Position numbers and translations under genes: made by a program. This document shows positions 17,237 through 34,186 of a DNA stretch of 47,226 nt, one piece after another. This DNA comes from a virus (taxonomy: Duplodnaviria > Heunggongvirae > Uroviricota > Caudoviricetes): the IMG/VR virus record IMGVR_UViG_2737471818_000007. One strand, written 5' to 3'. Position 1 is the first letter of the stretch. The number at the start of each line of letters is the position of its first letter. Under the pieces are notes generated by a model, which was given only the letters and a program-made list of their open reading frames with translations, was not told where the DNA came from and ran no database searches.

Positions 17237-18853
17237 TTACGGCATACTCATCAGCAGTTCTTCTTCCCCGTTCCCGGCAGTTCCGCCACCGGAAACGGCA
17301 CTGGCGGCATGCTGTGCCATGAAGCGCTCAAAAAGTGTTACCTGTGACGGTTGCGATACTGATGGCGCAGCTGCCAGCAGCGTTTTCGCCTGCTCCACTG
17401 TCATTCCAGGTTGTTCAGCCAGCGCCTGTGCCAGTTTTTCGCGTCCTTTTGCTTCCGGCAACGCAATAATTTGATCGCCGGTACTTGCCGTACCGGTTGC
17501 CGGTGCCGCTGCCAGTAGCATTTTCGCCTGTTCCACCGTCATTCCCGGCTGTTCAGCCAGCGCCTGTGCGAGTTGTTCACGCCCTTTTGCTTCCGGAAGT
17601 ACCATAATCTGCTCGCCGGTACTTGCCGCACCGGCAACCGGTGCCGCTGCCAGTAACGTTTTCGCCTGCTCCACCGTCATTCCCGGCTGTTCAGCCAGCG
17701 TCCGTGCCAGTTGTTCACGTCCTTTTGCTTCCGGAAGTGCCACAATCTGATCGCCTGTGCTGTCAGTACCGGCAACCGGTGCTGCCGCCAGTAATGTTTT
17801 TGCCTGCTCAACTGACATTCCCTGCTGACCTGCCAGCATCTGCGCCAGTTTTTCGCGTCCTTTCGCCTCCTGACAATTCAGGATCCCCATCACGCGCTGA
17901 TTTTCCTGGGACACCGCTTCAGCAACGGTGAGATTTTTTGTTGTCATCGTATTCTCCTGTGTAACAGAGTCGTTCAGAGCAGAAACCATTACATCAACGG
18001 CATCTGCAGCATTAATCAGTTGATCAGCCAGGCCTGTATCAATGCCTGCCTGGCCGTCATAAACGGCAGCCTCGGTATTCATCACCACCTCTGAACTCAG
18101 CCCCGTATAAAGTGCCACCTTGTCGACAAACATCCGGCGGGCCTCATCAATACGGCGCTGAAAATCCGCACGCACACCTGTCGGCAACGCCTGAATACTG
18201 TTGCCGTCAACCTTGTGCTGCCCGGAGTAAATCAGCGTGATATCCACGCCTTCCTGTGCCAGTTGTTTCTCGTAACTGGTGTGCGCCATCATCACACCAA
18301 TCGAACCAATTTTTGCCGTCTGCGTGACCAGCCGACGCGTACAGGCCGCCGCCAGCAACATGGCGGCTGAACAGGCCATGTCATTACACAGCGCCCACAC
18401 GGGCTTCTGTTCCCGCAGACGGTAAATCATGTCAGCACAGTCAAACGCCCCGGCAGCCTGACCGCCCGGACTGTCGATATCCAGTAAAATGCCGCGTACA
18501 TCCGGGTCGTTCACCGCTGACTTAAGACGGGCAGTCAGACCGTCATAACCGGTCATACCGGAATATGGCCGCAGGGTACCCATTTTATGTACCAACGTGC
18601 CGCTCACCGGCAGAATGGCAATACCATTTTTCACCTGGTAACTCTTTACCGGACGCGGACCACCAGTCATATAATCGGTAACCGCCAGCTGCATACCATC
18701 GGCATCAAGCTGAACGGCCTGCTGCGGAACGGCAAGGTTGCCCGCCCCCATCTCCTTACCCAGTGCGCAAAAGAAAACCCGCGCATAGGCGGGTTCCAGT
18801 AAAAGCGGCTCATTAAATGCCATCGCGGCAATATGTGATAAATTACAGCGCAT
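17237..18853 (-). CDS. C: head maturation protease C (S49/ClpP-like) with scaffold (Nu3-like) C-terminal region
   Basis: 538-aa ORF; N-terminus and protease core are collinear with lambda gpC; C-terminal region carries four tandem copies of a ~46-aa unit; start overlaps the B stop. Confidence 0.9.
   Translation of the reverse strand: MRCNLSHIAAMAFNEPLLLEPAYARVFFCALGKEMGAGNLAVPQQAVQLDADGMQLAVTDYMTGGPRPVKSYQVKNGIAILPVSGTLVHKMGTLRPYSGMTGYDGLTARLKSAVNDPDVRGILLDIDSPGGQAAGAFDCADMIYRLREQKPVWALCNDMACSAAMLLAAACTRRLVTQTAKIGSIGVMMAHTSYEKQLAQEGVDITLIYSGQHKVDGNSIQALPTGVRADFQRRIDEARRMFVDKVALYTGLSSEVVMNTEAAVYDGQAGIDTGLADQLINAADAVDVMVSALNDSVTQENTMTTKNLTVAEAVSQENQRVMGILNCQEAKGREKLAQMLAGQQGMSVEQAKTLLAAAPVAGTDSTGDQIVALPEAKGREQLARTLAEQPGMTVEQAKTLLAAAPVAGAASTGEQIMVLPEAKGREQLAQALAEQPGMTVEQAKMLLAAAPATGTASTGDQIIALPEAKGREKLAQALAEQPGMTVEQAKTLLAAAPSVSQPSQVTLFERFMAQHAASAVSGGGTAGNGEEELLMSMP
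17360..17875 (-). repeat. four in-frame tandem repeats (~138 nt each) inside gene C
   Basis: Peptide unit LPEAKGREQLAxxLAEQPGMTVEQAKTLLAAAPxxGxxSTGxQIx repeated four times (residues ~327-498); the nucleotide repeats are visible by eye. Confidence 0.85.
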
Positions 18854-20414
18854 CGCCTTTTTCTCCCGTTGTCTGTCGGATCTGCTGTTGAAACGCGTCC
18901 TTTATCCAGACCGGACGCGGAAGACCGGCAGCCTGTCGCTCCTGAGTTTCCCGTAGCTGCTGGCGGAAAATCTCCTGATAGTCATCCCCCATCAGGGCCA
19001 GCTCTTTCTCGTATGTACTCAGGCCGCCTTCAATGCGCATCACCGCTTCCTGCACTTCCTTAAGGCCATCAATCGCCATACGACCGGCACCAATCCACTC
19101 GGCACGGCACCACCCGGAACGGGCCTCCCAGAATGAGAAACGGGATTTCGGCGGACGGATCACACCACGAATAAGGGCTTCCTCCAGCCAGCAGGCAAAC
19201 ATCTGTGACGCCAGGCGACTGGCCACAAATTTTCGTTTTCCCATAAAATACCGCCACGACTCATTGGCGGATGCCCTGGCACTGGAATAACTGACCTGTG
19301 AATAATCCCGGGAAAGCTGCTCATACGACACACCCAGTCCGGCAGCAATGTAACGTAACAGCGCCTTTTCCAGTTCAGAAAAACCATTATCCGCATTCTG
19401 GGCTGTCTGCAGATTCAGTGAATCTCCCGGGTAAAGATGCGGAATACGGACCCCGCCCAGTTTTACCGTATTGGTGGCGTAATAACGCGCGTAGCCTTTC
19501 ATGATGGTGTTCAGGGGATTTTTACCTCCATCTCCCACCCCGGCGATATATTCAAACGCTTTTTCCGAATCCAGTGTGGATTCAATCGTGGCGGCATACA
19601 TGGCGCGAACCACCGCCGACTGCAGTTGCGTGGCCTGCAGTGTGTCGAGCATCTTGAGACGCTCCATTACAGAATAAAACTGGTTGGCCCCGCGGGTCTG
19701 CCCGTCTTCCTGTGGCTGAAACACATGGATCATTCCCGGTCGTCCGGAAGGCAGTGTTGCCGTAATTCGTGTCCATTTACTGACACCGTAGCCGGGCCAG
19801 TCATCATCCTGAACATGGTAGGCCAGCGCTTTTCCGTGTCGGTTTATTTCCACCCCGGCACGCATAAAACGATCGCCGGTACCATAACCGGGTGTACTGA
19901 CACGCTTCGGGCTGATGGTTTTGAATTTCGTCCGGAATAATGACGTGGATTCCGCATCCCATACGGGCTGGACAAAAATTTCACCGTTAAACGTATGGAC
20001 CCCCACCCCTTCACGAATAAATTCGGTAAACGAACGACGCCCTTCCACATCCATCGTACCAAACACCGGATCGCAGTATTCCATCCACGCCGCCTCAACA
20101 TCTTCAATAAAAGCATGTGAATCTGCTTCCGACATCCCCAGCCAGCGCCAGTTGGGACGGTAACTCAGACGAAACATGTGCCCGACAATATGATCCTTAT
20201 GAATTTCCACTGCATTCGATGCAATACCGTTGTTACGGACCAGCTCATCCGCGCGGGCGTTACCCAGATGAATGGAAGGTAAGAGCGCCACGTCGGCACT
20301 TTCCGGTGCAGGCAGCCATTCTGCCATTTGCCCACCGAACCCGGAACCACCACCAGAATATCCCATGCTTTGCCGTAAAGGCTGCCCATGAATATCCACC
20401 AGTTCCCCGTTCAC
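18843..20414 (-). CDS. B: portal protein B
   Basis: 523-aa ORF collinear with lambda gpB (GGGSGFGG.., RGANQFYSVMERLKMLDTLQ..); track start is a GTG at 20414, so the true start is uncertain. Confidence 0.9.
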   Translation of the reverse strand: MNGELVDIHGQPLRQSMGYSGGGSGFGGQMAEWLPAPESADVALLPSIHLGNARADELVRNNGIASNAVEIHKDHIVGHMFRLSYRPNWRWLGMSEADSHAFIEDVEAAWMEYCDPVFGTMDVEGRRSFTEFIREGVGVHTFNGEIFVQPVWDAESTSLFRTKFKTISPKRVSTPGYGTGDRFMRAGVEINRHGKALAYHVQDDDWPGYGVSKWTRITATLPSGRPGMIHVFQPQEDGQTRGANQFYSVMERLKMLDTLQATQLQSAVVRAMYAATIESTLDSEKAFEYIAGVGDGGKNPLNTIMKGYARYYATNTVKLGGVRIPHLYPGDSLNLQTAQNADNGFSELEKALLRYIAAGLGVSYEQLSRDYSQVSYSSARASANESWRYFMGKRKFVASRLASQMFACWLEEALIRGVIRPPKSRFSFWEARSGWCRAEWIGAGRMAIDGLKEVQEAVMRIEGGLSTYEKELALMGDDYQEIFRQQLRETQERQAAGLPRPVWIKDAFQQQIRQTTGEKGDAL

Positions 20415-20620
20415 AGCCCCACTCCTGCCGGGCCACGACGCCGTCCGGATACACCCAGCGCACTTTCCAGCTCTTCAATATACTGACGCAGTTCACCAAT
20501 TGTCGCCCGCGAATACTGAACCTGACGCCCGTCCTTGCTGACGGAAACCACAGCACGTCCGATCATCAGTTCATGTAACGCCCGGCGGGCATCGCATAGC
20601 ATTTCATGCGTATAAATCAT
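20411..20620 (-). CDS. W: head-tail joining protein W
   Basis: ATG at 20620 immediately after the A stop (TAAGTGATG); ..ARRALHELM..RRRGPAGVGL resembles lambda gpW. Confidence 0.85.
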   Translation of the reverse strand: MIYTHEMLCDARRALHELMIGRAVVSVSKDGRQVQYSRATIGELRQYIEELESALGVSGRRRGPAGVGL

Positions 20621-20623
20621 CAC

Positions 20624-22540
20624 TTATCCTCCACTCAGAGCAGCCGCGATTTCTTCAATAGTCATTTCATCGTCGTCCTGTTCATCTCTTCTGGCGCGGG
20701 CCAGTGCATCCAGATCCAGTTGCCACCGCTGAACGGAAATGCGCAGCGCTGCATAGGCATACACCAGACAGTCCAGAGCTTCATTACGCCGTTTTCTGGC
20801 ATCCCACTGGAGTTTCACCCGCCCGTTCACAACTTTTTCAACCAGCTCTTCTGCCACGAGTTGTTTAGCTTCAACATCAGAAAAAATGTCCGGGTTATCC
20901 GGAAAACGGAAGGTATACGGTGCGACTTCACTGGCAGATACCACCGGCAGGGCAAAACGCGCATACAGCATTTCCTTGACGGTATCGGAACCCACCTCAC
21001 ACAAAAACACCCCACGCTGGTTTCGCTTTTTTGGCATGGTGATCACCGGCTTGCCGTACACCGACGCCCCTTTGATGGGGAGCACAAAAAAAGTGCCGTG
21101 TTTTCTGGATCGCTGATACACAATGTCCTGGTCAATACCACCGGTATCCCAGCAGACGCGGGAAATGGAAATTTCAGTGCCATCTGCATGACGGTATTTT
21201 TTCCGGATCACGGCATCAACGCGTTTAAGGGTGTCCTCATCTTCCGGTCTCCCCATGATGATCTGCTTGTCAATCAGAAAAGCTTCTTCGCCAGGAGCCC
21301 AGCCCCAGACATAAATCTCATAACGGTTTTTCTGAGAGTCGATCCCTGCGGTCAGGTAAACCACCCGCAGGGGAACCTGCGCATCATAGTGGCAGACTTT
21401 TTCCAGCAATAACTCAAAGCTCAGTTTTTCTGCCACAGCCTCTTCATAAGGCTCCCCCAGCGTGGTGTTAATGAACGTCTTGACGCCATTCGGATCCTTC
21501 AGTGCATCAAGCCAGTCATAAACAATCTGTACCCAGGTGGTGAACGGGCTGTATGCCGTCCAGATGTGGTACGAGATTGAGCGCGGTGGCGGGATTTCCT
21601 CATCACCGGCGCTGTAAAATGTCAGACCGTCACGCGTCCACATCCCGGTATTGTCACAAATCCACCGCCCGTCGGTCTGGTCAAGTTCCGACTGACGGAT
21701 CGCGCAGCCATTATGTTCACACAGGTAATACACCGTCTCCGGCTTGCCCTTCTCCCATTTCAGGCCAAAGGTTGTCGCATCATCGCCAAACTTCAGATAC
21801 TGGGCTTCACCACAATGAGGGCATGGCACATAAAACCGCATAAAATGTGCAGATTCGTTCGCGGCTTTTTCAATCTGGCAAAAACCTTTAATTTTGGGCG
21901 TTGAGCCGCGTATGGATTTAGGCCATACCGAACCTTCGATACGCTTATCGCCAAGCAGAGTTGGTGAACCTTCTTTTTCCACATCCGGTTCAAACGAGGA
22001 GAGTTCGTCATAGCAGACCACATCCACAGATTTTTCACGGTAGTTTTTGGCAGCAGCTCCGCCCAGACACCAGAATCCCACACCGGAGGAGAAACGTTTC
22101 AGGGTAAGCGTGTTGTCCCGATGTTTTCTGCCAAACCACGGAGCCAGCTCCAGTAATACAGGAACGTCTCTTATCGTTGGTTCGACATGGGATTTCATAA
22201 AATCTTCTGCCGCAGAATCTGTCGGCTGAAAAAGCAGGCTGTTACGGGATTTGTGTTCAATAAAATAAGCCTCCACCCCCAACAGCATTTTGGTGTAACC
22301 AACACGCGCCGATTTAATCAGATTAACGGTGCGGATCCGGTCATTCCCCATGCTGTTCATGATGGCAACCTGAAACGGCAGTGTTTCCCATTGCCCGGGA
22401 GTATATGAAGACTCTTTTGGCAGATAATAATGCTGATCAGCCCACTGAACTGTCGTCAGTGGTACCGGAATATTGAGAGATACAAGCCCTGTTGCTATCG
22501 CACCGGCTGCATTAGCTGCCTTCTGTGCGTCTGAAATCAT
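20624..22540 (-). CDS. A: terminase large subunit A
   Basis: Track ORF begins at TTG 22543, ATG at 22540; collinear with lambda gpA ([14 protein letters not shown].., [18 protein letters not shown].., CWDTGGID..). Confidence 0.95.
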
Positions 22541-24443: not shown

Positions 24444-24737
24444 ATGAAAAAAACGCTACTCACTTTCACGCTGGCCCTGCTTATCTCTGGATGTGCTCAA
24501 CAGACGTTTACTGTTGAAAACCAACCGACAACAGTAACACCGAAGGAAACCATCACTCATCATTTCTTCGTTTCTGGAATTGGTCAGAAGAAAACTGTCG
24601 ATGCAGCCAAAGTTTGTGGTGGCGCAGAAAAAGTTGTTAAGACTGAAACCCAGCAAACATTCGTAAATGGATTGCTCGGTTTTATCACTTTCGGCATTTA
24701 TACTCCGCTGGAAGCTCGGGTATATTGCTCACAATAA
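24444..24737 (+). CDS. bor: Bor lipoprotein (serum-resistance, Iss family)
   Basis: 97-aa ORF MKKTLLTFTLALLISGCAQQTFTV... with lipobox LISGC; near-identical in pattern to lambda Bor; opposite strand to the late operon as in lambda. Confidence 0.92.
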   Translation: MKKTLLTFTLALLISGCAQQTFTVENQPTTVTPKETITHHFFVSGIGQKKTVDAAKVCGGAEKVVKTETQQTFVNGLLGFITFGIYTPLEARVYCSQ

Positions 24738-24745
24738 TATCATAA

Positions 24746-24769
24746 GTTGCCCATCTCGATGGGCAACTC
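24746..24769. terminator. hairpin between convergent bor and endolysin genes
   Basis: Perfect 10-bp inverted repeat AGTTGCCCAT-ctcg-ATGGGCAACT directly after the bor stop; U-rich run on the minus-strand side. Confidence 0.5.
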
Positions 24770-25054
24770 TATCTGCACTTGATGCGCAAATAACAACTTC
24801 CAAAAGAAAAATAGCAAAAGCAGACCGTGTCACATAAAGACGTGCAGTTACTTTCTTTTCTATTCCTTTCATAACGGACGGCTTTAAAAGAAGATTTATA
24901 CGATCTGCCGAGGATTTTTCTCTGTACTCACTGATTCATATTCTCCTCTTTGTTTGGTATAAAAACCGAACTCTTTCTCCAGTCGTTTTTCTTGTTCGGT
25001 AAGTCTAATAACAAGCTAACCGCAGGTTGGATTTACTGGCCTCATTAATGCCAA

Positions 25055-25600
25055 CTACACCACCACGCGCTCTTTCATCCAGCCATACACGAACGATTCA
25101 TTAGCCTCACGTTTTTCTGCCAGTTCAAGGTAGCGATCTCCCTGCGTACAGTTTAGCGCTGTCAGAATCACCAACTCACCATCCCTGCCACGTTTTGACA
25201 AATAGGCGCGTAACGCATTAATGGTACGTGGGCCGATACAACCATCTGCATCAATGTCCGGATACAACTCTCCTTTCTGGTTAAATACATTAAGCCAGCG
25301 CTGAAGCATTCTGGATGCCACTGACGGCCCCATGTTTACGCCGGTATCACACAATTCAGCAGCGATCTCCGGAGACAGGCTCGCAACCTTGTGAAAACGT
25401 GGTCCGTACCAGTAGTCCGCTTCAAGAATTTCGAGGGCCTGCCCACGCGTCAGGTCACGAATATCCCCCTGATAACCGTGTGCACGGGCAACTTTTCCAG
25501 TAATGCCCCATTTAGTCGGACCACCTTTATCATCAGGGTGGTTGACGTAGCCGCCCTCTTTGCCAAGAACAGCATCAAAAATTTCATCTTTCGACTTCAT
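25055..25600 (-). CDS. endolysin, GH108-type lysozyme with peptidoglycan-binding domain
   Basis: Track ORF begins at GTG 25648; ATG at 25600 gives MKSKDEIFDAVLGKEGGYVNHPDDKGGPTKWGIT, the GH108 N-terminal signature; starts right after the stop of the upstream membrane ORF. Confidence 0.8.
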   Translation of the reverse strand: MKSKDEIFDAVLGKEGGYVNHPDDKGGPTKWGITGKVARAHGYQGDIRDLTRGQALEILEADYWYGPRFHKVASLSPEIAAELCDTGVNMGPSVASRMLQRWLNVFNQKGELYPDIDADGCIGPRTINALRAYLSKRGRDGELVILTALNCTQGDRYLELAEKREANESFVYGWMKERVVV

Positions 25601-25601
25601 C

Positions 25602-25880
25602 TCAGCGCCTTCGTAATACAAAGATTTTTGAAACGTTCCCACGAGCACGAACCACCAGCACGCAGAACAGCAGGTTAAAAAACACTTCCAGCCAGCCCGT
25701 TGCTAACGGGCGACCACACAGATAGCTGAGGGGCGCAAAGGCATACAGCAACATCAGCAGCCAGGCCAGCCACGACATCAGCGGTTTATGTCTCGACTCA
25801 CCACGACGATAAAAAAAGAGCGTCAGCACGATAACCGTGCTTAACACCATATTCAGTAATCCGGGAAGGTTACTTAACAT
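25602..25880 (-). CDS. lysis-cassette membrane protein (second holin-like protein)
   Basis: Track ORF begins at GTG 25892; ATG at 25880 preceded by GGAGG; ~92 aa with two or three hydrophobic helices; sits between holin and endolysin. Confidence 0.6.
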   Translation of the reverse strand: MLSNLPGLLNMVLSTVIVLTLFFYRRGESRHKPLMSWLAWLLMLLYAFAPLSYLCGRPLATGWLEVFFNLLFCVLVVRARGNVSKIFVLRRR

Positions 25881-26259
25881 TACCGCCTCCACCCCGCAGA
25901 CGGGAGAACAGCCCAGATACCAGCGATGCGATATCCTGCTGGTGGATGAATGATAGAATCTTCACCGACACCACCGATACCAGTACCGCACAAAGCGCGT
26001 CGAGAGATGTGCTGTGGAGATTCAGTTTTTCAGCCAAGTAAGACGCCATCACATCCGCCCCCAGCACGCCAACAATGAACGACACCAGAAAATGCGCTGC
26101 CACACGCCAGACAGAAATCTTCTGTGGTATCGTGGCCACAAACAGCGCCCCTGCGAATGCACCAAACACAATCCCGAAATCCGTTCCGGTAAACAGCCCG
26201 AATACCGTCGCCCCGCCGAGCGCCGCAGCCGTGCCGGAACCGGATAAGGGTTCAGACAT
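25870..26259 (-). CDS. putative holin
   Basis: Track ORF 25870..26472 trimmed to the ATG at 26259 preceded by AGGAGA; 129 aa, Gly/Ala-rich transmembrane segments; first gene after the terminator-rich leader. Confidence 0.65.
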   Translation of the reverse strand: MSEPLSGSGTAAALGGATVFGLFTGTDFGIVFGAFAGALFVATIPQKISVWRVAAHFLVSFIVGVLGADVMASYLAEKLNLHSTSLDALCAVLVSVVSVKILSFIHQQDIASLVSGLFSRLRGGGGNVK

Positions 26260-26275
26260 ACTTTTTCTCCTGTAA

Positions 26276-26308
26276 ATAAAAAAGGGCCTCTGTCGGCCCG
26301 TAAAAAAA
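26276..26308 (-). terminator. rho-independent terminator just upstream of the holin (tR'-like)
   Basis: Minus strand GGGCCGACAGAGGCCC followed by TTTTTTATTT, about 20 nt before the holin RBS. Confidence 0.6.
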
Positions 26309-26426
26309 CACCCCATCAAAGGCACCCGCAGATGCCTTTTGTGTGGTGTTATCTGGTGTTTTCTGATGTGATGTGTACAGGACACAGATGTGAAAAAGGT
26401 CCGCCGGTACGAACCCTGTGTATGAA

Positions 26427-26455
26427 TAAAAAAATGCCCGTCAGGAGACGGGCCA
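26427..26455 (-). terminator. rho-independent terminator in the late leader
   Basis: Minus strand GCCCGTCTCCTGACGGGC followed by ATTTTTTT. Confidence 0.6.
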
Positions 26456-26508
26456 ACGCATTCATCATGCAAGAGTTAAGCAGGATTACTTGTATCGAAT
26501 TATCGGTA

Positions 26509-26583
26509 TCAGAATGAGTCGTCAACCTGCAACCGCAATTCTGACGAATCGTAGGTTCCGGTACAGGTGACGACTCATTCTGA
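26509..26583. repeat. large inverted repeat (stem ~20 bp, loop ~32 nt)
   Basis: ATCAGAATGAGTCGTCAACCTG ... CAGGTGACGACTCATTCTGAT. Confidence 0.7.
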
Positions 26584-26656
26584 TAACGCATACCATTAAC
26601 AATGTAAAAAACCAGCAAGCCTCAAATAAATTAGCATAATTAAAATCTCAGAATAC

Positions 26657-26762
26657 GATGCCTGATGCATTATCGGGATAAAGCATAATTACCTGATAAA
26701 TGAAATGCCTGCATTGCAAAGATCCTCACCAATAACCATGCTTTATCCCGATAAGGCATCAC
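26657..26762. repeat. 21-bp inverted repeats flanking a ~50-bp spacer
   Basis: TGCATTATCGGGATAAAGCAT ... ATGCTTTATCCCGATAAGGCA (20 of 21 match). Confidence 0.65.
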
Positions 26763-27056
26763 ATAATTAAATATGTTGCATTAAGATGACGTTCCGCCCC
26801 ATAACACCCTGATATTCACCTAACTCGCCATGAAATCAGAACGCCATCTGAATACACAGAAAAAAGCTGGCTTTACACCACCCTGCATGTGAACGCAGAA
26901 CTCACCCCACCACGTGCTTTCGCAACCAGCACACAATCTGTGTCAAAAACTGGCAGATGAGCAATGAAACTGCCAGTGCGGTCACCTGTCTTAGTTCGCA
27001 TCGCTAATTCTGCGTGATAACAAGCTTTTCGTTCTTATCTTATTGTGCACTCCTGG

Positions 27057-28106
27057 TTAACCCGCCTGCTCCATTATTTCACCAACGGTCTGTTCAAAAC
27101 GTTCTTTTTCCAGTTCCACGCCAGTCGCCCTGCGTCCCAGTGACAGTGCCGCTTTTATTGTCGCCCCCGACCCCATAAAAAAATCGGCAACCAAATCACC
27201 GGGGCGACTGCTGGCCTCAATTATCTGCCGCAACATATCGGCTGGTTTTTCACAGGGATGTTTGCCCGGATAATACTGCACGGGCTTGTGCGTCCAGACA
27301 TCCGTATACGGAACGGCAACTGATACGGAAAAATAACGCCGCAGGGATTTGTACTCCTTCAGCAGGCTGGCATATTGCCGGTTCAGTTCACTGTATGTGC
27401 TGACCAGCTGGTGGTGTGGCTTTTCCAGTTCCCCGCGTTGATGTTTTTCTGCTGCAACACGCGCAAACAACGCCTGTAATTTCAGATAATCACCTTCGTT
27501 CGGCAACTGCCACTGACTGATACCAAACCAGTGCGAAGCCATGTTTTTCTTTCCGGTGGCTTCCGCTATCTGTTTTGACGTTATTCCCAGTGATTCACGC
27601 GCATCACGAAAGTAAGAAATCAGCGGGGCCATGACGTGCTGTTTTAGCTCGCTCCCCTTTGCCGCATAGCCGTCATTTTTGGGCCGGTATGGCCCCTGAT
27701 AATGTTCTGCAAACAGAATGCGTTCTGTTGCCGGGAAATACGCCCGCAGGCTTTCCTTGTTGCATCCGTTCCAGCGTCCGGACGGCTTCGCCCAGATAAT
27801 GTGGTTCAGCACATTAAAGCGCTCACGCATCATGATTTCGATATCAGATGCCAGGCGATGACCACAGAACAGGTAGAGACTTCCGGCAGGTTTCAGTACC
27901 CGCCAGAACTGCGCCAGACACTGTTCCAGCCATTTCAGGTAATCATCGTCGCCCTTCCACTGGTTATCCCAGCCCTCGGGCTTCACTTTAAAGTATGGCG
28001 GGTCTGTGACTATCAGATCGACTGAGTTTTCCGGTAAGGTCTGGATAAATTCCAGGCAATCAGCGTTGATTAACTCACAACTGGATATTTTTACAGTATT
28101 AACCAT
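27057..28106 (-). CDS. DNA methyltransferase, beta-class N6-adenine/N4-cytosine type
   Basis: 349-aa ORF with ATG at 28106; motif IV DPPY near the N-terminus (LIVTDPPYF) and motif I FxGxG near the C-terminus (DFFMGSGAT). Confidence 0.8.
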   Translation of the reverse strand: MVNTVKISSCELINADCLEFIQTLPENSVDLIVTDPPYFKVKPEGWDNQWKGDDDYLKWLEQCLAQFWRVLKPAGSLYLFCGHRLASDIEIMMRERFNVLNHIIWAKPSGRWNGCNKESLRAYFPATERILFAEHYQGPYRPKNDGYAAKGSELKQHVMAPLISYFRDARESLGITSKQIAEATGKKNMASHWFGISQWQLPNEGDYLKLQALFARVAAEKHQRGELEKPHHQLVSTYSELNRQYASLLKEYKSLRRYFSVSVAVPYTDVWTHKPVQYYPGKHPCEKPADMLRQIIEASSRPGDLVADFFMGSGATIKAALSLGRRATGVELEKERFEQTVGEIMEQAG

Positions 28107-28713: not shown

Positions 28714-30117
28714 ATGGCTCGTAAAGATTTCACTCAGCAAATAGACATTCCAATTCAAAATATCCTCCTCGATACTGAAAATGCCAGAATCCGCGCAGGT
28801 AGAGATCAAAACAACTGCATTTCAAGGATATTGCGTAAAGAAAACCAGATGCTTGTATTGATGGAGGATATTGCAGAAAACGGACTTACAACCATGCCCA
28901 TATTGGTTATGCCTCACTCAGAAGGTAAATGGGTAGTTAAAGATGGTAATAGACGAATAACAGCTTTAAAACTATTAAATAACCCAGATAGTTGCCCGGA
29001 ACCACATTTAATTCCGAAAATAAAAAAAATAAAAGAAAAATATCATGACAACATACCTACTACTGTTGACTGTTTATCAAGTGACAATTTTGAAGCAGTA
29101 TTTAAAGAGATAATAGCAAGGCATTCTGGAGCACGTAATGGTGCTGGTCAATATGACTGGTTTGCATATATGCGAACAATTTATCTATTAAATAATGGAC
29201 ATCCAACTGATTATAAAAGAGCTGGTCAATATATGTGTTGGGCTGAACAAGAAGGCATTGATGTAGATGATGATTTCCCAATCACTAGTGTAGCCAGATT
29301 CTTTACTAGAGATAATCTTCTATTGTTAGGATTTGAAGTGGAAAATGATAAATTGAAGCCAATACTCTCAAAAGAAAAAATAATAAAAATGGCCTCAAAA
29401 ATTAATAGCGACTTTTCTTCAAAAATAGTTGATGTTAACACCGTCTTTAATCCTAGCGATGCAAAGAAATATCTTTGCTCGGTAAGAAAATATGCAGGAA
29501 TAATAGATGATTTTGCTTACAATAGTGATGACACAGAACAAGAAAATAATAAAAAAGAAGAAACAAATAAATGTTCCTCTCCATCTGAAGTGGATAACAA
29601 TAATGCGCAATCAGATAGTAAGAGTGACGCACCTGTACTACTAAAAAAACACGCAGGTAGAGGAGGTACACCTAAAAAAATACCAGCAGAGCGAAATAAA
29701 ATTTTTGGTAGAGGAAAGCCTGGAATTACTATTCCTGAAAATGAGACTAAAATAAGAACTATAATCTCAGAACTTAGGCAATTAGATGTAAAAAAAACAA
29801 CTCTTGCAACTGCATTTCTTCTTCGGGCACTGCTGGAGTTAAGTGATAAAGAATATAGAACAATTAACAAGTTGCAAGATAAAAAAAGCTTAGCTAAAAA
29901 TATTGCTAATAGCGCAGATCATATGTTGAAAAATAATCTAATCACTGACTCAGAACACCATATAATATCAGCTTATACTCGCGGCGAGCAAGGAACTGTG
30001 CACATTGAAACTTTACAAAAATTAATTCACAGAGAGACACATCACCCAGATTATATCTCAATTAATGTTTTTTGGGACAATATAGGTTGTTTTGTTCGAG
30101 CTTGTTGGAAAGATTAA
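28714..30117 (+). CDS. ParB/Srx-fold (DGxRR motif) N-terminal domain protein, unknown function; candidate nuclease or defence protein
   Basis: 467-aa ORF with ATG at 28714; N-terminus has ParB-like motifs (ILLDTENARIR; GLTTMPILVMP; VVKDGNRRITALKLL); Lys-rich low-complexity linker; His-rich C-terminal domain; very AT-rich. Confidence 0.65.
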   Translation: MARKDFTQQIDIPIQNILLDTENARIRAGRDQNNCISRILRKENQMLVLMEDIAENGLTTMPILVMPHSEGKWVVKDGNRRITALKLLNNPDSCPEPHLIPKIKKIKEKYHDNIPTTVDCLSSDNFEAVFKEIIARHSGARNGAGQYDWFAYMRTIYLLNNGHPTDYKRAGQYMCWAEQEGIDVDDDFPITSVARFFTRDNLLLLGFEVENDKLKPILSKEKIIKMASKINSDFSSKIVDVNTVFNPSDAKKYLCSVRKYAGIIDDFAYNSDDTEQENNKKEETNKCSSPSEVDNNNAQSDSKSDAPVLLKKHAGRGGTPKKIPAERNKIFGRGKPGITIPENETKIRTIISELRQLDVKKTTLATAFLLRALLELSDKEYRTINKLQDKKSLAKNIANSADHMLKNNLITDSEHHIISAYTRGEQGTVHIETLQKLIHRETHHPDYISINVFWDNIGCFVRACWKD

Positions 30118-30163: not shown

Positions 30164-31018
30164 TCATTTCTTCTTCATAGAGGGAGTGCTATGAATATTT
30201 AAATTTTTATATACCATAAGTTCTGTAACTCTTGGCCTTGTCAAATGAGTTGAGTAATGTAAAGAAAACTCCACAATTTTTTCGTCTTTATATAACTTCC
30301 TGATTTCTTCACAATTATCATATGTAACAATTATCGGAGTGGAAATATCCTTAACCTTTTCAGAAATTAATTTATGATCATGAGGTTTATAATGATTTCT
30401 ATAAAGCTGGCTACCTTTTTCATAATATGGAGGATCAAGATAAATTAGAGATTTTTTTGGTAGTGTATTTTTTATACTACCAATCAACTCACAGGCATCC
30501 AAATTATAAAGATCAATAAATTTTTTCATTCCACCTATTTTTTTTACTCTTTCACATAGTTTCTTCTTATTATACCTAGCATCAATCTTATATTTACCAC
30601 TCTGTTCTTTTCCTCCTATAACCCCACCTGATAAGATTCCAGAACGATTGGTTCGATTGAGAAAAAACGTAGCAAAACCAATAGATAAAATATCATGTTT
30701 AGTATAATTGTTTATTACATCTTTTTGCTTATACCAATTATCCATTGTTACTTCTGTTTCATTTATCAATGAAATAAATTTATCATTCTCATTTAACACT
30801 GACCACCAAAATGAGTAAACAACAGGATCCAAATCATTAATAATGACATGATCTACATATCCATGCATTAGCAAATACAATGCAGCTCCTGCGCCGCCAG
30901 CATATGGCTCCACATAATACCCACCACTAATTCCGTTATACCTCAGCAGTTCTGATATCCAAGGCCCCATCCTCCCTTTTCCACCGGGATAACGTAATGG
31001 GGTAAAAAATGTAGTCAT
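30164..31018 (-). CDS. DNA adenine methyltransferase, D12 (Dam-like) class
   Basis: Track ORF 30164..31054 trimmed to the ATG at 31018 (MTTFFTPLRYPGGKGRM..); motifs YPGGK, VEPYAGGAG, FLNRTNRSG, YLDPPYY parallel E. coli Dam; AT-rich; convergent with the ParB-like gene. Confidence 0.8.
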   Translation of the reverse strand: MTTFFTPLRYPGGKGRMGPWISELLRYNGISGGYYVEPYAGGAGAALYLLMHGYVDHVIINDLDPVVYSFWWSVLNENDKFISLINETEVTMDNWYKQKDVINNYTKHDILSIGFATFFLNRTNRSGILSGGVIGGKEQSGKYKIDARYNKKKLCERVKKIGGMKKFIDLYNLDACELIGSIKNTLPKKSLIYLDPPYYEKGSQLYRNHYKPHDHKLISEKVKDISTPIIVTYDNCEEIRKLYKDEKIVEFSLHYSTHLTRPRVTELMVYKNLNIHSTPSMKKK

Positions 31019-31105
31019 GCTGAACCTCATACAAAACCAGGAAATTAAATGCATTTTACCCTAAATCACATCAATTCTAAATAACTAAATTAACAGTATT
31101 AAAAT

Positions 31106-31459
31106 TCAGTTATCTGAAAGTATAAATAGCATCCCATCAACGAACCCCAATGCTGTTTGTAGTTCTTTTCTGATTGTGCCATCTGAACACTTCCGCTTTT
31201 TTGCAATTGTACGGAGAGAAATCCCGATAACAAAGTGAGCAATGATCAGCTCATATTCTTCTGGTTTATATTTCCGCAACCGGGCCACACATCCATCAAT
31301 CATAATTCCTTCATCATCATCGCACTGGAGACGTGACATTTTACCGTGTGGTAGAAGCCCCTTGAAGCCTGCCGCTATCGACTGCCAATCAACACCACTA
31401 TTTTCTGCTGCAGCCCATGCCCCCCAGCGGTCTAAAACCTCATACATATCACGCCCCAT
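31106..31459 (-). CDS. Q: late-gene antiterminator Q (QuuD / phage 82 Q family)
   Basis: Track ORF trimmed to the ATG at 31459 preceded by AGGTG; ..LDRWGAWAA..SIAAGFKGL..CDDDEGIMIDGCVARL.. resembles DLP12 QuuD (recalled). Confidence 0.75.
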   Translation of the reverse strand: MGRDMYEVLDRWGAWAAAENSGVDWQSIAAGFKGLLPHGKMSRLQCDDDEGIMIDGCVARLRKYKPEEYELIIAHFVIGISLRTIAKKRKCSDGTIRKELQTALGFVDGMLFILSDN

Positions 31460-31820
31460 TACTAACACCTCTAATTTCGCAAATCTTCACGCCCAGCCGA
31501 CCACCAGGAACGGGCTGACCGCGCACAATATTAATTTCATCAAACTGCTCGTCGTCGATAAGCAGTCCCGCATGCGTCAGCGCATCCAGCGGTGCTTTCA
31601 GGATATTGTCCAGATCACGACGGCGCTTATCCGGTGGCTCTGCAATAATCTTTATCGCCAGCCTTCCGGACAGGTTTAATTTCAGCCGCTGCTGGCAAAC
31701 AATAAGCGCCACATCCCGGCGATAACGCTCACCGGCTTTTGATACAAAATATGTGCTGCCACGACGTCGCCAGTAGGTGTTCACCGTTGGCGGGTAAGGC
31801 AAAACAAACTCTATACGCAT
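31449..31820 (-). CDS. rusA: RusA Holliday-junction resolvase
   Basis: 123-aa ORF; PPTVNTYWRRRG..RRRDLDNILKAPLDALT.. matches RusA-family motifs. Confidence 0.85.
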   Translation of the reverse strand: MRIEFVLPYPPTVNTYWRRRGSTYFVSKAGERYRRDVALIVCQQRLKLNLSGRLAIKIIAEPPDKRRRDLDNILKAPLDALTHAGLLIDDEQFDEINIVRGQPVPGGRLGVKICEIRGVSNGA

Positions 31821-33682: not shown

Positions 33683-34168
33683 TTAGTTTTGCTGTTCTAT
33701 TTTAAGCTTGATAGTTTCATACAAAACAATAGTTGCGCCTGTTTTACATAATTCCCGACTGTCATACGCACGAGACCAATAACACAACCAATTTTCAAGC
33801 TCTTCTCGTGTATAAATTTTACAGGCCAGCCCCTCAGCCATCTCTACAACTTCATCGCCTGGCGCGGTTAATTCGTATCCATTTAACAATAAAAAAACCG
33901 CACCAGCCATCATTGCTGTGCGCTTGTTTGCATTGGCAAATGGATGATTCTGAATCAGACTTTCAATCAATACCGATGCCAGTACAAACATGTCGTTGGT
34001 TTGCTCATACCATCGAACCATACTGGGACGAGACTGAGAAGAACTTAAATTATCAACACTCAGCACACCAACAGGTTCATCTGGTGTTTGAAGCTCAATT
34101 AAAAGGCGATTGATTTCAGTAAGATCATCAACCGAGAGGTAGTGCACTCCTTCAACAATCTCAGCCAT
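33683..34168 (-). CDS. Fic/Doc-family toxin (Doc-like)
   Basis: Track ORF begins at TTG 34177, ATG at 34168; contains HPFANANKRTA matching the Doc motif HxFx(D/N)(A/G)NKR. Confidence 0.75.
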   Translation of the reverse strand: MAEIVEGVHYLSVDDLTEINRLLIELQTPDEPVGVLSVDNLSSSQSRPSMVRWYEQTNDMFVLASVLIESLIQNHPFANANKRTAMMAGAVFLLLNGYELTAPGDEVVEMAEGLACKIYTREELENWLCYWSRAYDSRELCKTGATIVLYETIKLKIEQQN

Positions 34169-34186
34169 AGAGCACAATACCCATCA

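Follow-up and report, generated by a model that had tools for sequence, protein, structure and literature searches.

What has become of the outer-membrane step of lysis in a prophage whose lysis cassette encodes holins and an endolysin, followed by no recognisable spanin gene? This question is raised by IMG/VR record IMGVR_UViG_2737471818_000007, a stretch of 47,226 nucleotides (nt) from a tailed phage of the Caudoviricetes, which was analyzed at its full length and is called the window below. A first-pass annotation had described the lysis genes of the window as a non-lambda cassette and had proposed that the spanin function may be missing, novel or very small. Our analysis favours the first of these options: we consider it rather probable (roughly 0.7) that this is a non-lambda cassette whose spanin genes went by deletion or recombination and left a scar, the absence being real and reflecting gene loss and not a new mechanism. 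"Missing" is supported by the scar itself and by the lack of any open reading frame (ORF) with a credible lipobox other than bor and of any spanin homologue; the 47-amino-acid (aa) ORF that had been named as the one small candidate is a chimera. Both the cassette type and spanin-less phages were already known; what the window adds is a case whose missing spanin is traceable to a scar.

The cassette consists of three genes (cf. Table 1), described at first pass as a 129-aa Gly/Ala-rich holin candidate, a membrane protein of about 92 aa with a strong ribosome-binding site and an endolysin with a GH108 signature, and family searches bore out all three assignments. The first gene, preceded by an AGGAGA ribosome-binding site, encodes a protein (holin 1) that matched Pfam Phage_holin_8 (E=2e-22) and PHROG 198 'holin' (7e-42). 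The second protein (holin 2), whose start overlaps the holin 1 stop by 11 nt, has three hydrophobic segments, i.e. three transmembrane domains (TMDs), a cationic C-terminus and a net charge of +9. It turned out to belong to a recognised holin family as well (Pfam Phage_holin_3_7, 4e-21; PHROG 217 'holin', 2e-36) and could be a holin or an antiholin partner. In the endolysin, Glyco_hydro_108 (3e-25) and PG_binding_3 (1e-25) domains were identified, the EGGY motif was seen in the sequence, and the protein matched PHROG 315 'endolysin' (1e-51). It belongs to the GH108 muramidase class of N4 gp61 and TtsA; against the NCBIfam equivalog 'holin-associated N-acetylmuramidase' it scored 72 bits at a cut-off of 240 and is therefore not that exact equivalog. 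The enzyme shares 83% identity with Salmonella Sen1395 (PDB 6V3Z, E=9e-105) and about 70% with the 6V40 chain, taken here to be a TtsA-type protein, and it has the two-domain architecture of both. Since the endolysin contains no hydrophobic segment, and hence neither a signal nor a signal-arrest-release (SAR) anchor, it is expected to be a soluble, cytoplasmic enzyme that needs a hole-forming holin. Its net charge of -2 makes it acidic, and an amphipathic cationic tail is lacking.

This cassette is of the phiP27 / LT-II-prophage type and not of the lambda S-R-Rz/Rz1 type, in agreement with its initial description as non-lambda. The two-holin arrangement of phiP27, in which adjacent and overlapping Phage_holin_8 and Phage_holin_3_7 genes lie upstream of the endolysin, is present in the window, and the holin genes L28 and L29 of this Stx2e phage share 87% nucleotide identity with those of the window, in the same order and with the same overlap. 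Furthermore, in both phages the cassette lies downstream of Q and a methylase gene. However, the phiP27 endolysin (L30) is an M15 peptidase, while that of the window is a GH108 enzyme, and phiP27 keeps a 51-aa lipoprotein that is not found in the window. The same trio of holin 1, holin 2 and GH108 endolysin (81% nucleotide identity for the endolysin) is carried by the E. coli LT-IIb prophage SerU-LTIIb (KU052038), where likewise no Rz/Rz1 is annotated behind the endolysin; LT-IIb toxin genes follow there, whereas the window has only the scar and bor. With lambda, the window has in common bor, the hairpin that separates bor from Rz, and the final 11 nt of Rz itself (about 89% identity), as well as the downstream DUF1398 gene and the lambda-type Nu1/A, whereas the lambda holin and endolysin belong to families unrelated to those of the window, and Rz/Rz1 are gone here but for the 11-nt stub. 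Within this prophage, a full lambdoid one, the cassette belongs to the late operon under Q control, between methylase and terminase genes; past bor come the DUF1398 gene, then Nu1 and the large terminase subunit.

The scar lies between the endolysin stop and the bor stop. The first-pass annotation had noted a gap of about 300 bp with no ORF of 60 aa or more; the distance is 317 bp, and the longest ORFs in it are of 47 aa and 28 aa. In relatives such as E. coli CH4793, the same endolysin is followed by a strong terminator hairpin and then by two small genes, here called ORF A (37 aa, MKGIEVETPASLDLTRAAAFAIRLVAVAVLIWAVRWW) and ORF B (a 51-aa lipoprotein, MPRTAAKWALVAILVPFFLVGC/VSLDKARQLFDTASQVCEIVDGVRQCMQN). 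ORF A proteins are a family of small membrane proteins (PHROG 4493/1115/3246) with a conserved R-A-x-AFAI-K/R-x-VAV motif and a C-terminal TMD, their short form ending in RWW. Codons 1 to about 30 of the 47-aa ORF correspond to the diverged 5' part of such a gene (alignments A1 and A3; window-type allele, MKGIEKKVTARLYVTRSAFAIF...), and past codon 31 or so the frame runs, out of register, through the 3' end of Rz, a hairpin and antisense bor. Homology to lambda begins abruptly at AGTGCAGATAG (24779-24769), which forms the left edge of the shared segment and is followed by the hairpin and bor, and the bor-containing phage matches listed all start at query position 1722, which equals window position 24779. 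For the 60-nt stretch containing the stem of the Rz-bor hairpin, the minimum free energy fold is -18.3 kcal/mol; the hairpin behind the endolysin folds at -7.2 kcal/mol in the window vs -24.9 kcal/mol in CH4793. Two pieces, a truncated ORF A and the final 11 nt of Rz, thus appear to meet in the 47-aa ORF, and on this evidence the gap is a scar of deletion or recombination.

As a coding sequence, the 47-aa ORF is probably a pseudogene. The GAGG Shine-Dalgarno sequence of its ORF A homologues is replaced by AAGC, the upstream sequence (AAAGCCGTCCGTT) contains no other Shine-Dalgarno, and the ORF A motif has decayed to R-S-AFAI-F-LLEV. The predicted peptide, with one hydrophobic segment and a net charge of +3, had no match in Pfam, PHROG (E<=0.1) or NCBIfam, and among 5.8 billion proteins it found only its own two-member cluster. 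Its membership of the ORF A family is not supported by any PHROG match at that threshold, yet it is supported by synteny, DNA alignment and a tblastn hit (E=0.001) over about 30 codons. The ORF had been credited with a weak ribosome-binding site and a poor lipobox-like VVIC, and both statements can be sharpened: there is no Shine-Dalgarno, and VVIC is not a lipobox, as it aligns with VLIW in the homologues, in which the Cys is not found. Likewise, the peptide was rejected as a lipoprotein, for it lacks the n-region/h-region/lipobox architecture and carries a Glu four residues ahead of the Cys. Its coordinates are corrected to those of Table 1. The 28-aa ORF was rejected as a gene too (no ribosome-binding site, not conserved as an ORF in CH4793, no family match). 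At the RNA level, no Rfam match (E<=1) was obtained between 23000 and 28700, ARAGORN predicted no tRNA anywhere in the window, and a promoter and terminator scan of the gap gave nothing beyond weak hairpins.

Spanins were also sought outside the gap. Every ORF of at least 20-25 aa was scanned for a lipoprotein signal from every start codon in all six frames, under strict and permissive rules. Across the whole window these scans yielded no credible lipoprotein besides Bor, which has no C-terminal TMD, and since Bor is the sole credible one, an outer-membrane spanin (o-spanin) and a unimolecular spanin (u-spanin) are ruled out, embedded ones included; no ORF of the window combines a lipoprotein signal with a C-terminal TMD in the manner of the T1 gp11-like u-spanin. 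On the late strand between 23000 and 27000, no ORF has the layout of an inner-membrane spanin (i-spanin), i.e. an N-terminal TMD and a periplasmic helical domain beside an o-spanin, and the rest of the late-strand ORFs are a lambda-like head and tail set. Six spanin families were compared with the 47 kb by tblastn, namely lambda Rz/Rz1, a second Rz, a P2-type LysB/LysC-like pair, the phiP27 o-spanin candidate and two i/o-spanin pairs from homologous loci; the best E-value was about 0.2, with E>=0.18 for the four i-spanin types. The two gap ORFs gave no spanin-family match in Pfam, nor did the 47-aa ORF in PHROG and NCBIfam. Consistently, no spanin appears in the PGAP annotation of the E. coli AREA_497 prophage, which has the lysis module in common with the window and different head/packaging genes. 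As regards a disruptin, a small, strongly cationic amphipathic peptide of the phiKT gp28 kind, the net charges of the gap ORFs are +3 for the 47-aa ORF (hydrophobic core, no ribosome-binding site) and +1 for the 28-aa ORF (TTG start). Judged from its sequence, the window thus appears to hold no member of any spanin class. The lipoprotein-signal prediction and spanin-family searches that the first-pass annotation had proposed as checks therefore returned Bor alone and nothing better than E~0.2, and its statement that no Rz/Rz1 is recognisable stands, with 11 nt of the Rz 3' end as the only remainder. Of the two findings it had named as speaking against it, neither was made: no spanin homologue lies elsewhere in the window, and the 47-aa ORF is no conserved lipoprotein.

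An assembly artefact was rejected as the source of the junction, since the junction recurs in independent complete genomes and viral contigs. Of 5,426 complete E. coli genomes, 13, most of them of cattle or farm origin, contain a 321-bp stretch covering the gap that is 99.4-100% identical, and the junction with its 47-aa ORF is present in 15 other IMG/VR contigs, alike save for one conservative substitution in three copies. In the IMG/VR scan, the window itself corresponded to contig IMGVR_UViG_2737471870_000001. Carriers of the junction include E. coli 1303, EC11 and AREA_497. It occurs on at least three packaging backbones with different terminases: that of the window (lambda-type), one whose terminase is 63-68% identical (L035, L038), and the unrelated AREA_497 type (24%). 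Across the 15 contigs the endolysin protein is 100% conserved, whereas holin 1 (83% vs 100%) and the terminase alleles vary. We read the junction as the product of one event, later shuffled among phages or prophages.

In the simplest history, a layout of endolysin, ORF A, Rz/Rz1 and bor would have lost about 470 bp, comprising the 3' end of ORF A and Rz/Rz1, through a single deletion or illegitimate recombination in which ORF A, from about codon 31 on, was replaced by the final 11 nt of an Rz of the lambda type. This ancestor is the simplest one because the window keeps the Rz 3' end; the product would look no different had an ORF A-bearing cassette recombined with an Rz-bor module of the lambda type. 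Ancestral layouts do exist: ORF A is followed by Rz in phage GER2, where an embedded Rz1 was seen, and in E. coli SW071618, and by ORF B in phiSTEC1575-Stx2k, E. coli CH4793 and 45 of 80 IMG/VR loci. As for lysis by the remaining genes, Q would drive late transcription through the moron region of about 4.8 kb into the cassette, and the two holin-family proteins would build up in the inner membrane until one or both trigger and form holes large enough for the muramidase. The released GH108 enzyme would then degrade the murein sacculus, and the outer-membrane step would be left without a dedicated gene, this having been lost. Lambda Rz/Rz1 mutants give spherical cells, and their lysis is blocked by millimolar divalent cations or by the absence of shear. 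By analogy, the window phage is likely to have an Rz-minus-like, condition-dependent lysis phenotype: induced cells would round up, and release would need shear, low divalent cations or agents that act on the membrane, bile salts among them. The block would likewise be lifted by spanins from co-resident prophages.

Three points weigh against this account of spanin loss or its details: (i) a copy of this ORF A allele without the deletion could not be recovered, either when the gap was compared with the 5,426 E. coli genomes by megablast and blastn, or in an exact-pattern scan of IMG/VR, or in the search of 5.8 billion proteins, all of which returned same-junction copies only, and the ancestral state is deduced from diverged relatives; (ii) the 11 nt of Rz may simply mark where a mobile 'bor module' usually ends, as E. 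coli Ceylon31 keeps an Rz-like 3' end (CAGTGTAAATAA) ahead of the bor hairpin, which would make inter-phage recombination possible in place of an in-situ deletion; and (iii) if the lesion is crippling, the presence of the junction on several backbones is a little surprising, which leaves some scope for release without spanins. Ceylon31 is at the same time a second, independent Rz-less joint, and spanin loss beside this endolysin is in this sense recurrent.

Two surveys addressed what follows GH108 endolysins elsewhere. Behind the homologues from 19 Enterobacterales genomes we found P2-type spanins, Rz/Rz1-type spanins, a 90-aa/75-aa spanin pair or ORF B, and nothing at one locus only. Among the 80 closest IMG/VR loci with a window-type endolysin, ORF B lies downstream in 48, the window-type scar in 15 and P2-type spanins in nine, LT-II enterotoxin genes follow directly in five (in L073 with a 93-aa ORF and Rz further downstream), and single loci have a P2-type context without spanins, a 93-aa ORF or a truncated contig. 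In the P2-like locus L080 (IMGVR_UViG_2713896902_000002), the GH108 endolysin runs into the tail-completion gene and the LysB/LysC-type spanins of nine sibling loci are missing, so that it would represent another independent spanin loss. The LT-II A and B genes occupy the slot of ORF A/ORF B or of the spanins in L072, L073, L074, L095 and L101 (also L001:4397-6368); toxin genes behind a TtsA-like endolysin recall, by analogy, the toxin-linked type 10 secretion systems (T10SSs). A further locus, L007 (NZ_JBQPOM010000071.1), is labelled Vagococcus sp., a Gram-positive organism, although its lysis region is enterobacterial and P2-like, with an endolysin of 88% identity and lipobox spanins; the label is probably due to contamination or mislabelling.

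In different phages, ORF A stands directly upstream of Rz or ORF B (cf. Table 1), its stop overlapping the start codon of the next gene (TGGTGGTGAnATG), and this constant position suggests a role tied to the outer-membrane step. ORF B appears, by its evolutionary behaviour, to be a real gene: the ratio of nonsynonymous to synonymous polymorphism (pN/pS) is 0.28 across 29 alleles, as expected under purifying selection; all 29 have an LVGC or LSGC lipobox; the mature part of about 30 residues keeps its cysteines; and lipobox and cysteines are conserved as far as Salmonella, Citrobacter and Lelliottia. The 51-aa protein has been listed as the o-spanin of phiP27, the shortest of its set with 30 mature residues (Kongari et al. 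2018, PMC6139136). This published annotation is a computational 'o-spanin' call only, and the partner is implausible: the proposed phiP27 i-spanin (20348-20542) starts with TTG, lies antisense to an ORF of 90 aa and looks doubtful, for which reason it was left out of the queries, and no other plausible i-spanin partner of ORF B was evident. In GER2, which has an intact Rz/Rz1, the ORF B copy contains four in-frame stops and is a pseudogene, a single anecdote that would fit redundancy of ORF B with Rz/Rz1.

Of the other explanations, the one that survives best, though we think it improbable, is that the prophage no longer depends on lysis: it would be decaying or vertically inherited, the spanin loss would be neutral, and the module would have spread only via prophage-prophage recombination. 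The small number of carriers (13 of 5,426 genomes, mostly from cattle or farms) fits such a history, as do the degenerate post-endolysin terminator and ORF A ribosome-binding site and the insertion sequence (IS) directly behind the endolysin in one copy (L049). However, the prophage is apparently a complete lambdoid one, with all of its lambda-like head, tail, terminase, Q and integrase ORFs at full length, and the endolysin is invariant in 15 contigs that differ in their alleles of holin 1 and the terminase, a pattern that speaks for modules being actively exchanged.

It seems unlikely to us that the cassette is functionally complete, with the 47-aa peptide, one of the holin-family proteins or the endolysin breaking the outer membrane as the 'disruptin' gp28 of phiKT does. 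Phages without recognised spanins are common enough (91 of 677 genomes in Kongari et al. 2018, PMC6139136; about 13-15% of phages of Gram-negative hosts), and phiKT, in which, as in the window, no i-, o- or u-spanin can be identified, uses a cationic peptide; persistence of the junction module on at least three backbones and the hydrophobic segment and positive charge of the 47-aa ORF could be read in the same way. However, in contrast to phiKT, no conserved cationic peptide gene is apparent in the window, and its spanin absence comes with a visible deletion scar. The 47-aa ORF, devoid of a Shine-Dalgarno, is a frame-fusion of two unrelated sequences with no homologue outside its own clone, and the endolysin is acidic and offers no amphipathic cationic tail. 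Moreover, close relatives nearly always have extra downstream lipoprotein or spanin genes, which suggests that the three genes alone are not normally sufficient.

A related and similarly doubtful idea is that spanin loss is tolerated or even selected, the two-holin/GH108 cassette releasing progeny or periplasmic contents spanin-free, for instance where the outer membrane is weakened by bile salts or antimicrobial peptides; the window-, Ceylon31- and LT-II-type junctions would then be intermediates between phage and T10SS. Least credible is that the spanin-less holin and TtsA-like muramidase already work as, or evolve toward, a T10SS releasing periplasmic cargo without full lysis: Salmonella T10SSs do consist of a holin and a GH108 muramidase with no spanin (PMC13284979), the endolysin and the TtsA/Sen1395 muramidases share 70-83% identity, and LT-II genes stand directly behind it, in the spanin slot, in relatives, but T10SSs are host-regulated and have linked cargo, whereas the window cassette, with no toxin or other cargo gene beside it and a place between methylase and terminase among the Q-controlled late genes of a full lambdoid prophage, is not one.

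Elsewhere in the prophage, the region between Q and the lysis genes contains a PD-Lambda-5 anti-phage defence pair and a second methylase gene (cf. Table 1). The roughly 800 bp upstream of holin 1 (26260-27056) hold no convincing gene; relatives have tRNA genes, stx2e or other morons at this place. A 138-bp tandem repeat (3.6 copies, 84% matches) at 17370-17870 lies within a 538-aa ORF (17237-18853) beside the portal gene and encodes repeated 'LPEAKGREQLAQALAEQPGMTVEQAKTLLAAAP' units. A Fic/DOC-family protein of 164 aa is encoded at 33683-34177 (-) in the early/moron region.

Table 1. Features of the lysis region and related loci. Positions refer to the window unless a locus is named.
Feature	Position	Strand	Description
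Holin 1	26259..25870	-	129 aa; 3-4 hydrophobic segments; Gly/Ala-rich N-terminal half
Holin 2	25880..25602	-	92 aa from ATG behind GGAGG; 96 aa from upstream GTG
Endolysin	25600..25055	-	181 aa; GH108 N-acetylmuramidase; C-terminal PG_binding_3
28-aa ORF	25014..24928	-	TTG start
Terminator hairpin remnant	24961..24990	-	Degenerate form of the strong post-endolysin hairpin of relatives; alignment A1
47-aa chimeric ORF	24872..24729	-	DNA alignments A1, A2, A3; tblastn with ORF A, E=0.001
Lambda-type Rz 3' stub	24779-24769	-	Last 11 nt of Rz, cAG TGC AGA TAG (...Q C R stop); alignment A2
Rz-bor hairpin, common to lambda	24768-24745		11-bp stem; alignment A2
bor	24444..24737	+	Convergent with lysis genes; Pfam Lambda_Bor 2e-30; 89% nucleotide identity to lambda
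Terminator-like hairpins	26453-26436, 26299-26284	late strand	
Second N6_N4 methylase	27057-28106		
PD-Lambda-5_A match	28714-30117	+	467 aa; no Pfam match; 3.5e-74
PD-Lambda-5_B match	30164-31054	-	D12-class methyltransferase; 3.5e-115
Q	31468..31106		Phage_antitermQ
ORF A family loci	L004:4028-4325, L125:2299-2656, L126:1145-1718, L026:1858-2737		Directly upstream of Rz or ORF B
ORF B	L002:5153-5308 (phiP27, 20706-20861), L004:4170-4325		PHROG 7528, 'unknown function'; 48 IMG/VR loci

The main use of these results is in annotation: the 47-aa ORF proposed as a spanin does not merit the status of a gene, and the proper entry for the prophage is 'spanin-deficient'. ORF B poses a question of greater interest than the window, namely whether this lipoprotein alone can breach the outer membrane. 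The window, for its part, provides a clean natural Rz/Rz1-null allele that has nevertheless spread to several lambdoid backbones in E. coli mainly from cattle and farms, and with it a convenient test of how important spanins are outside the shaken flask.

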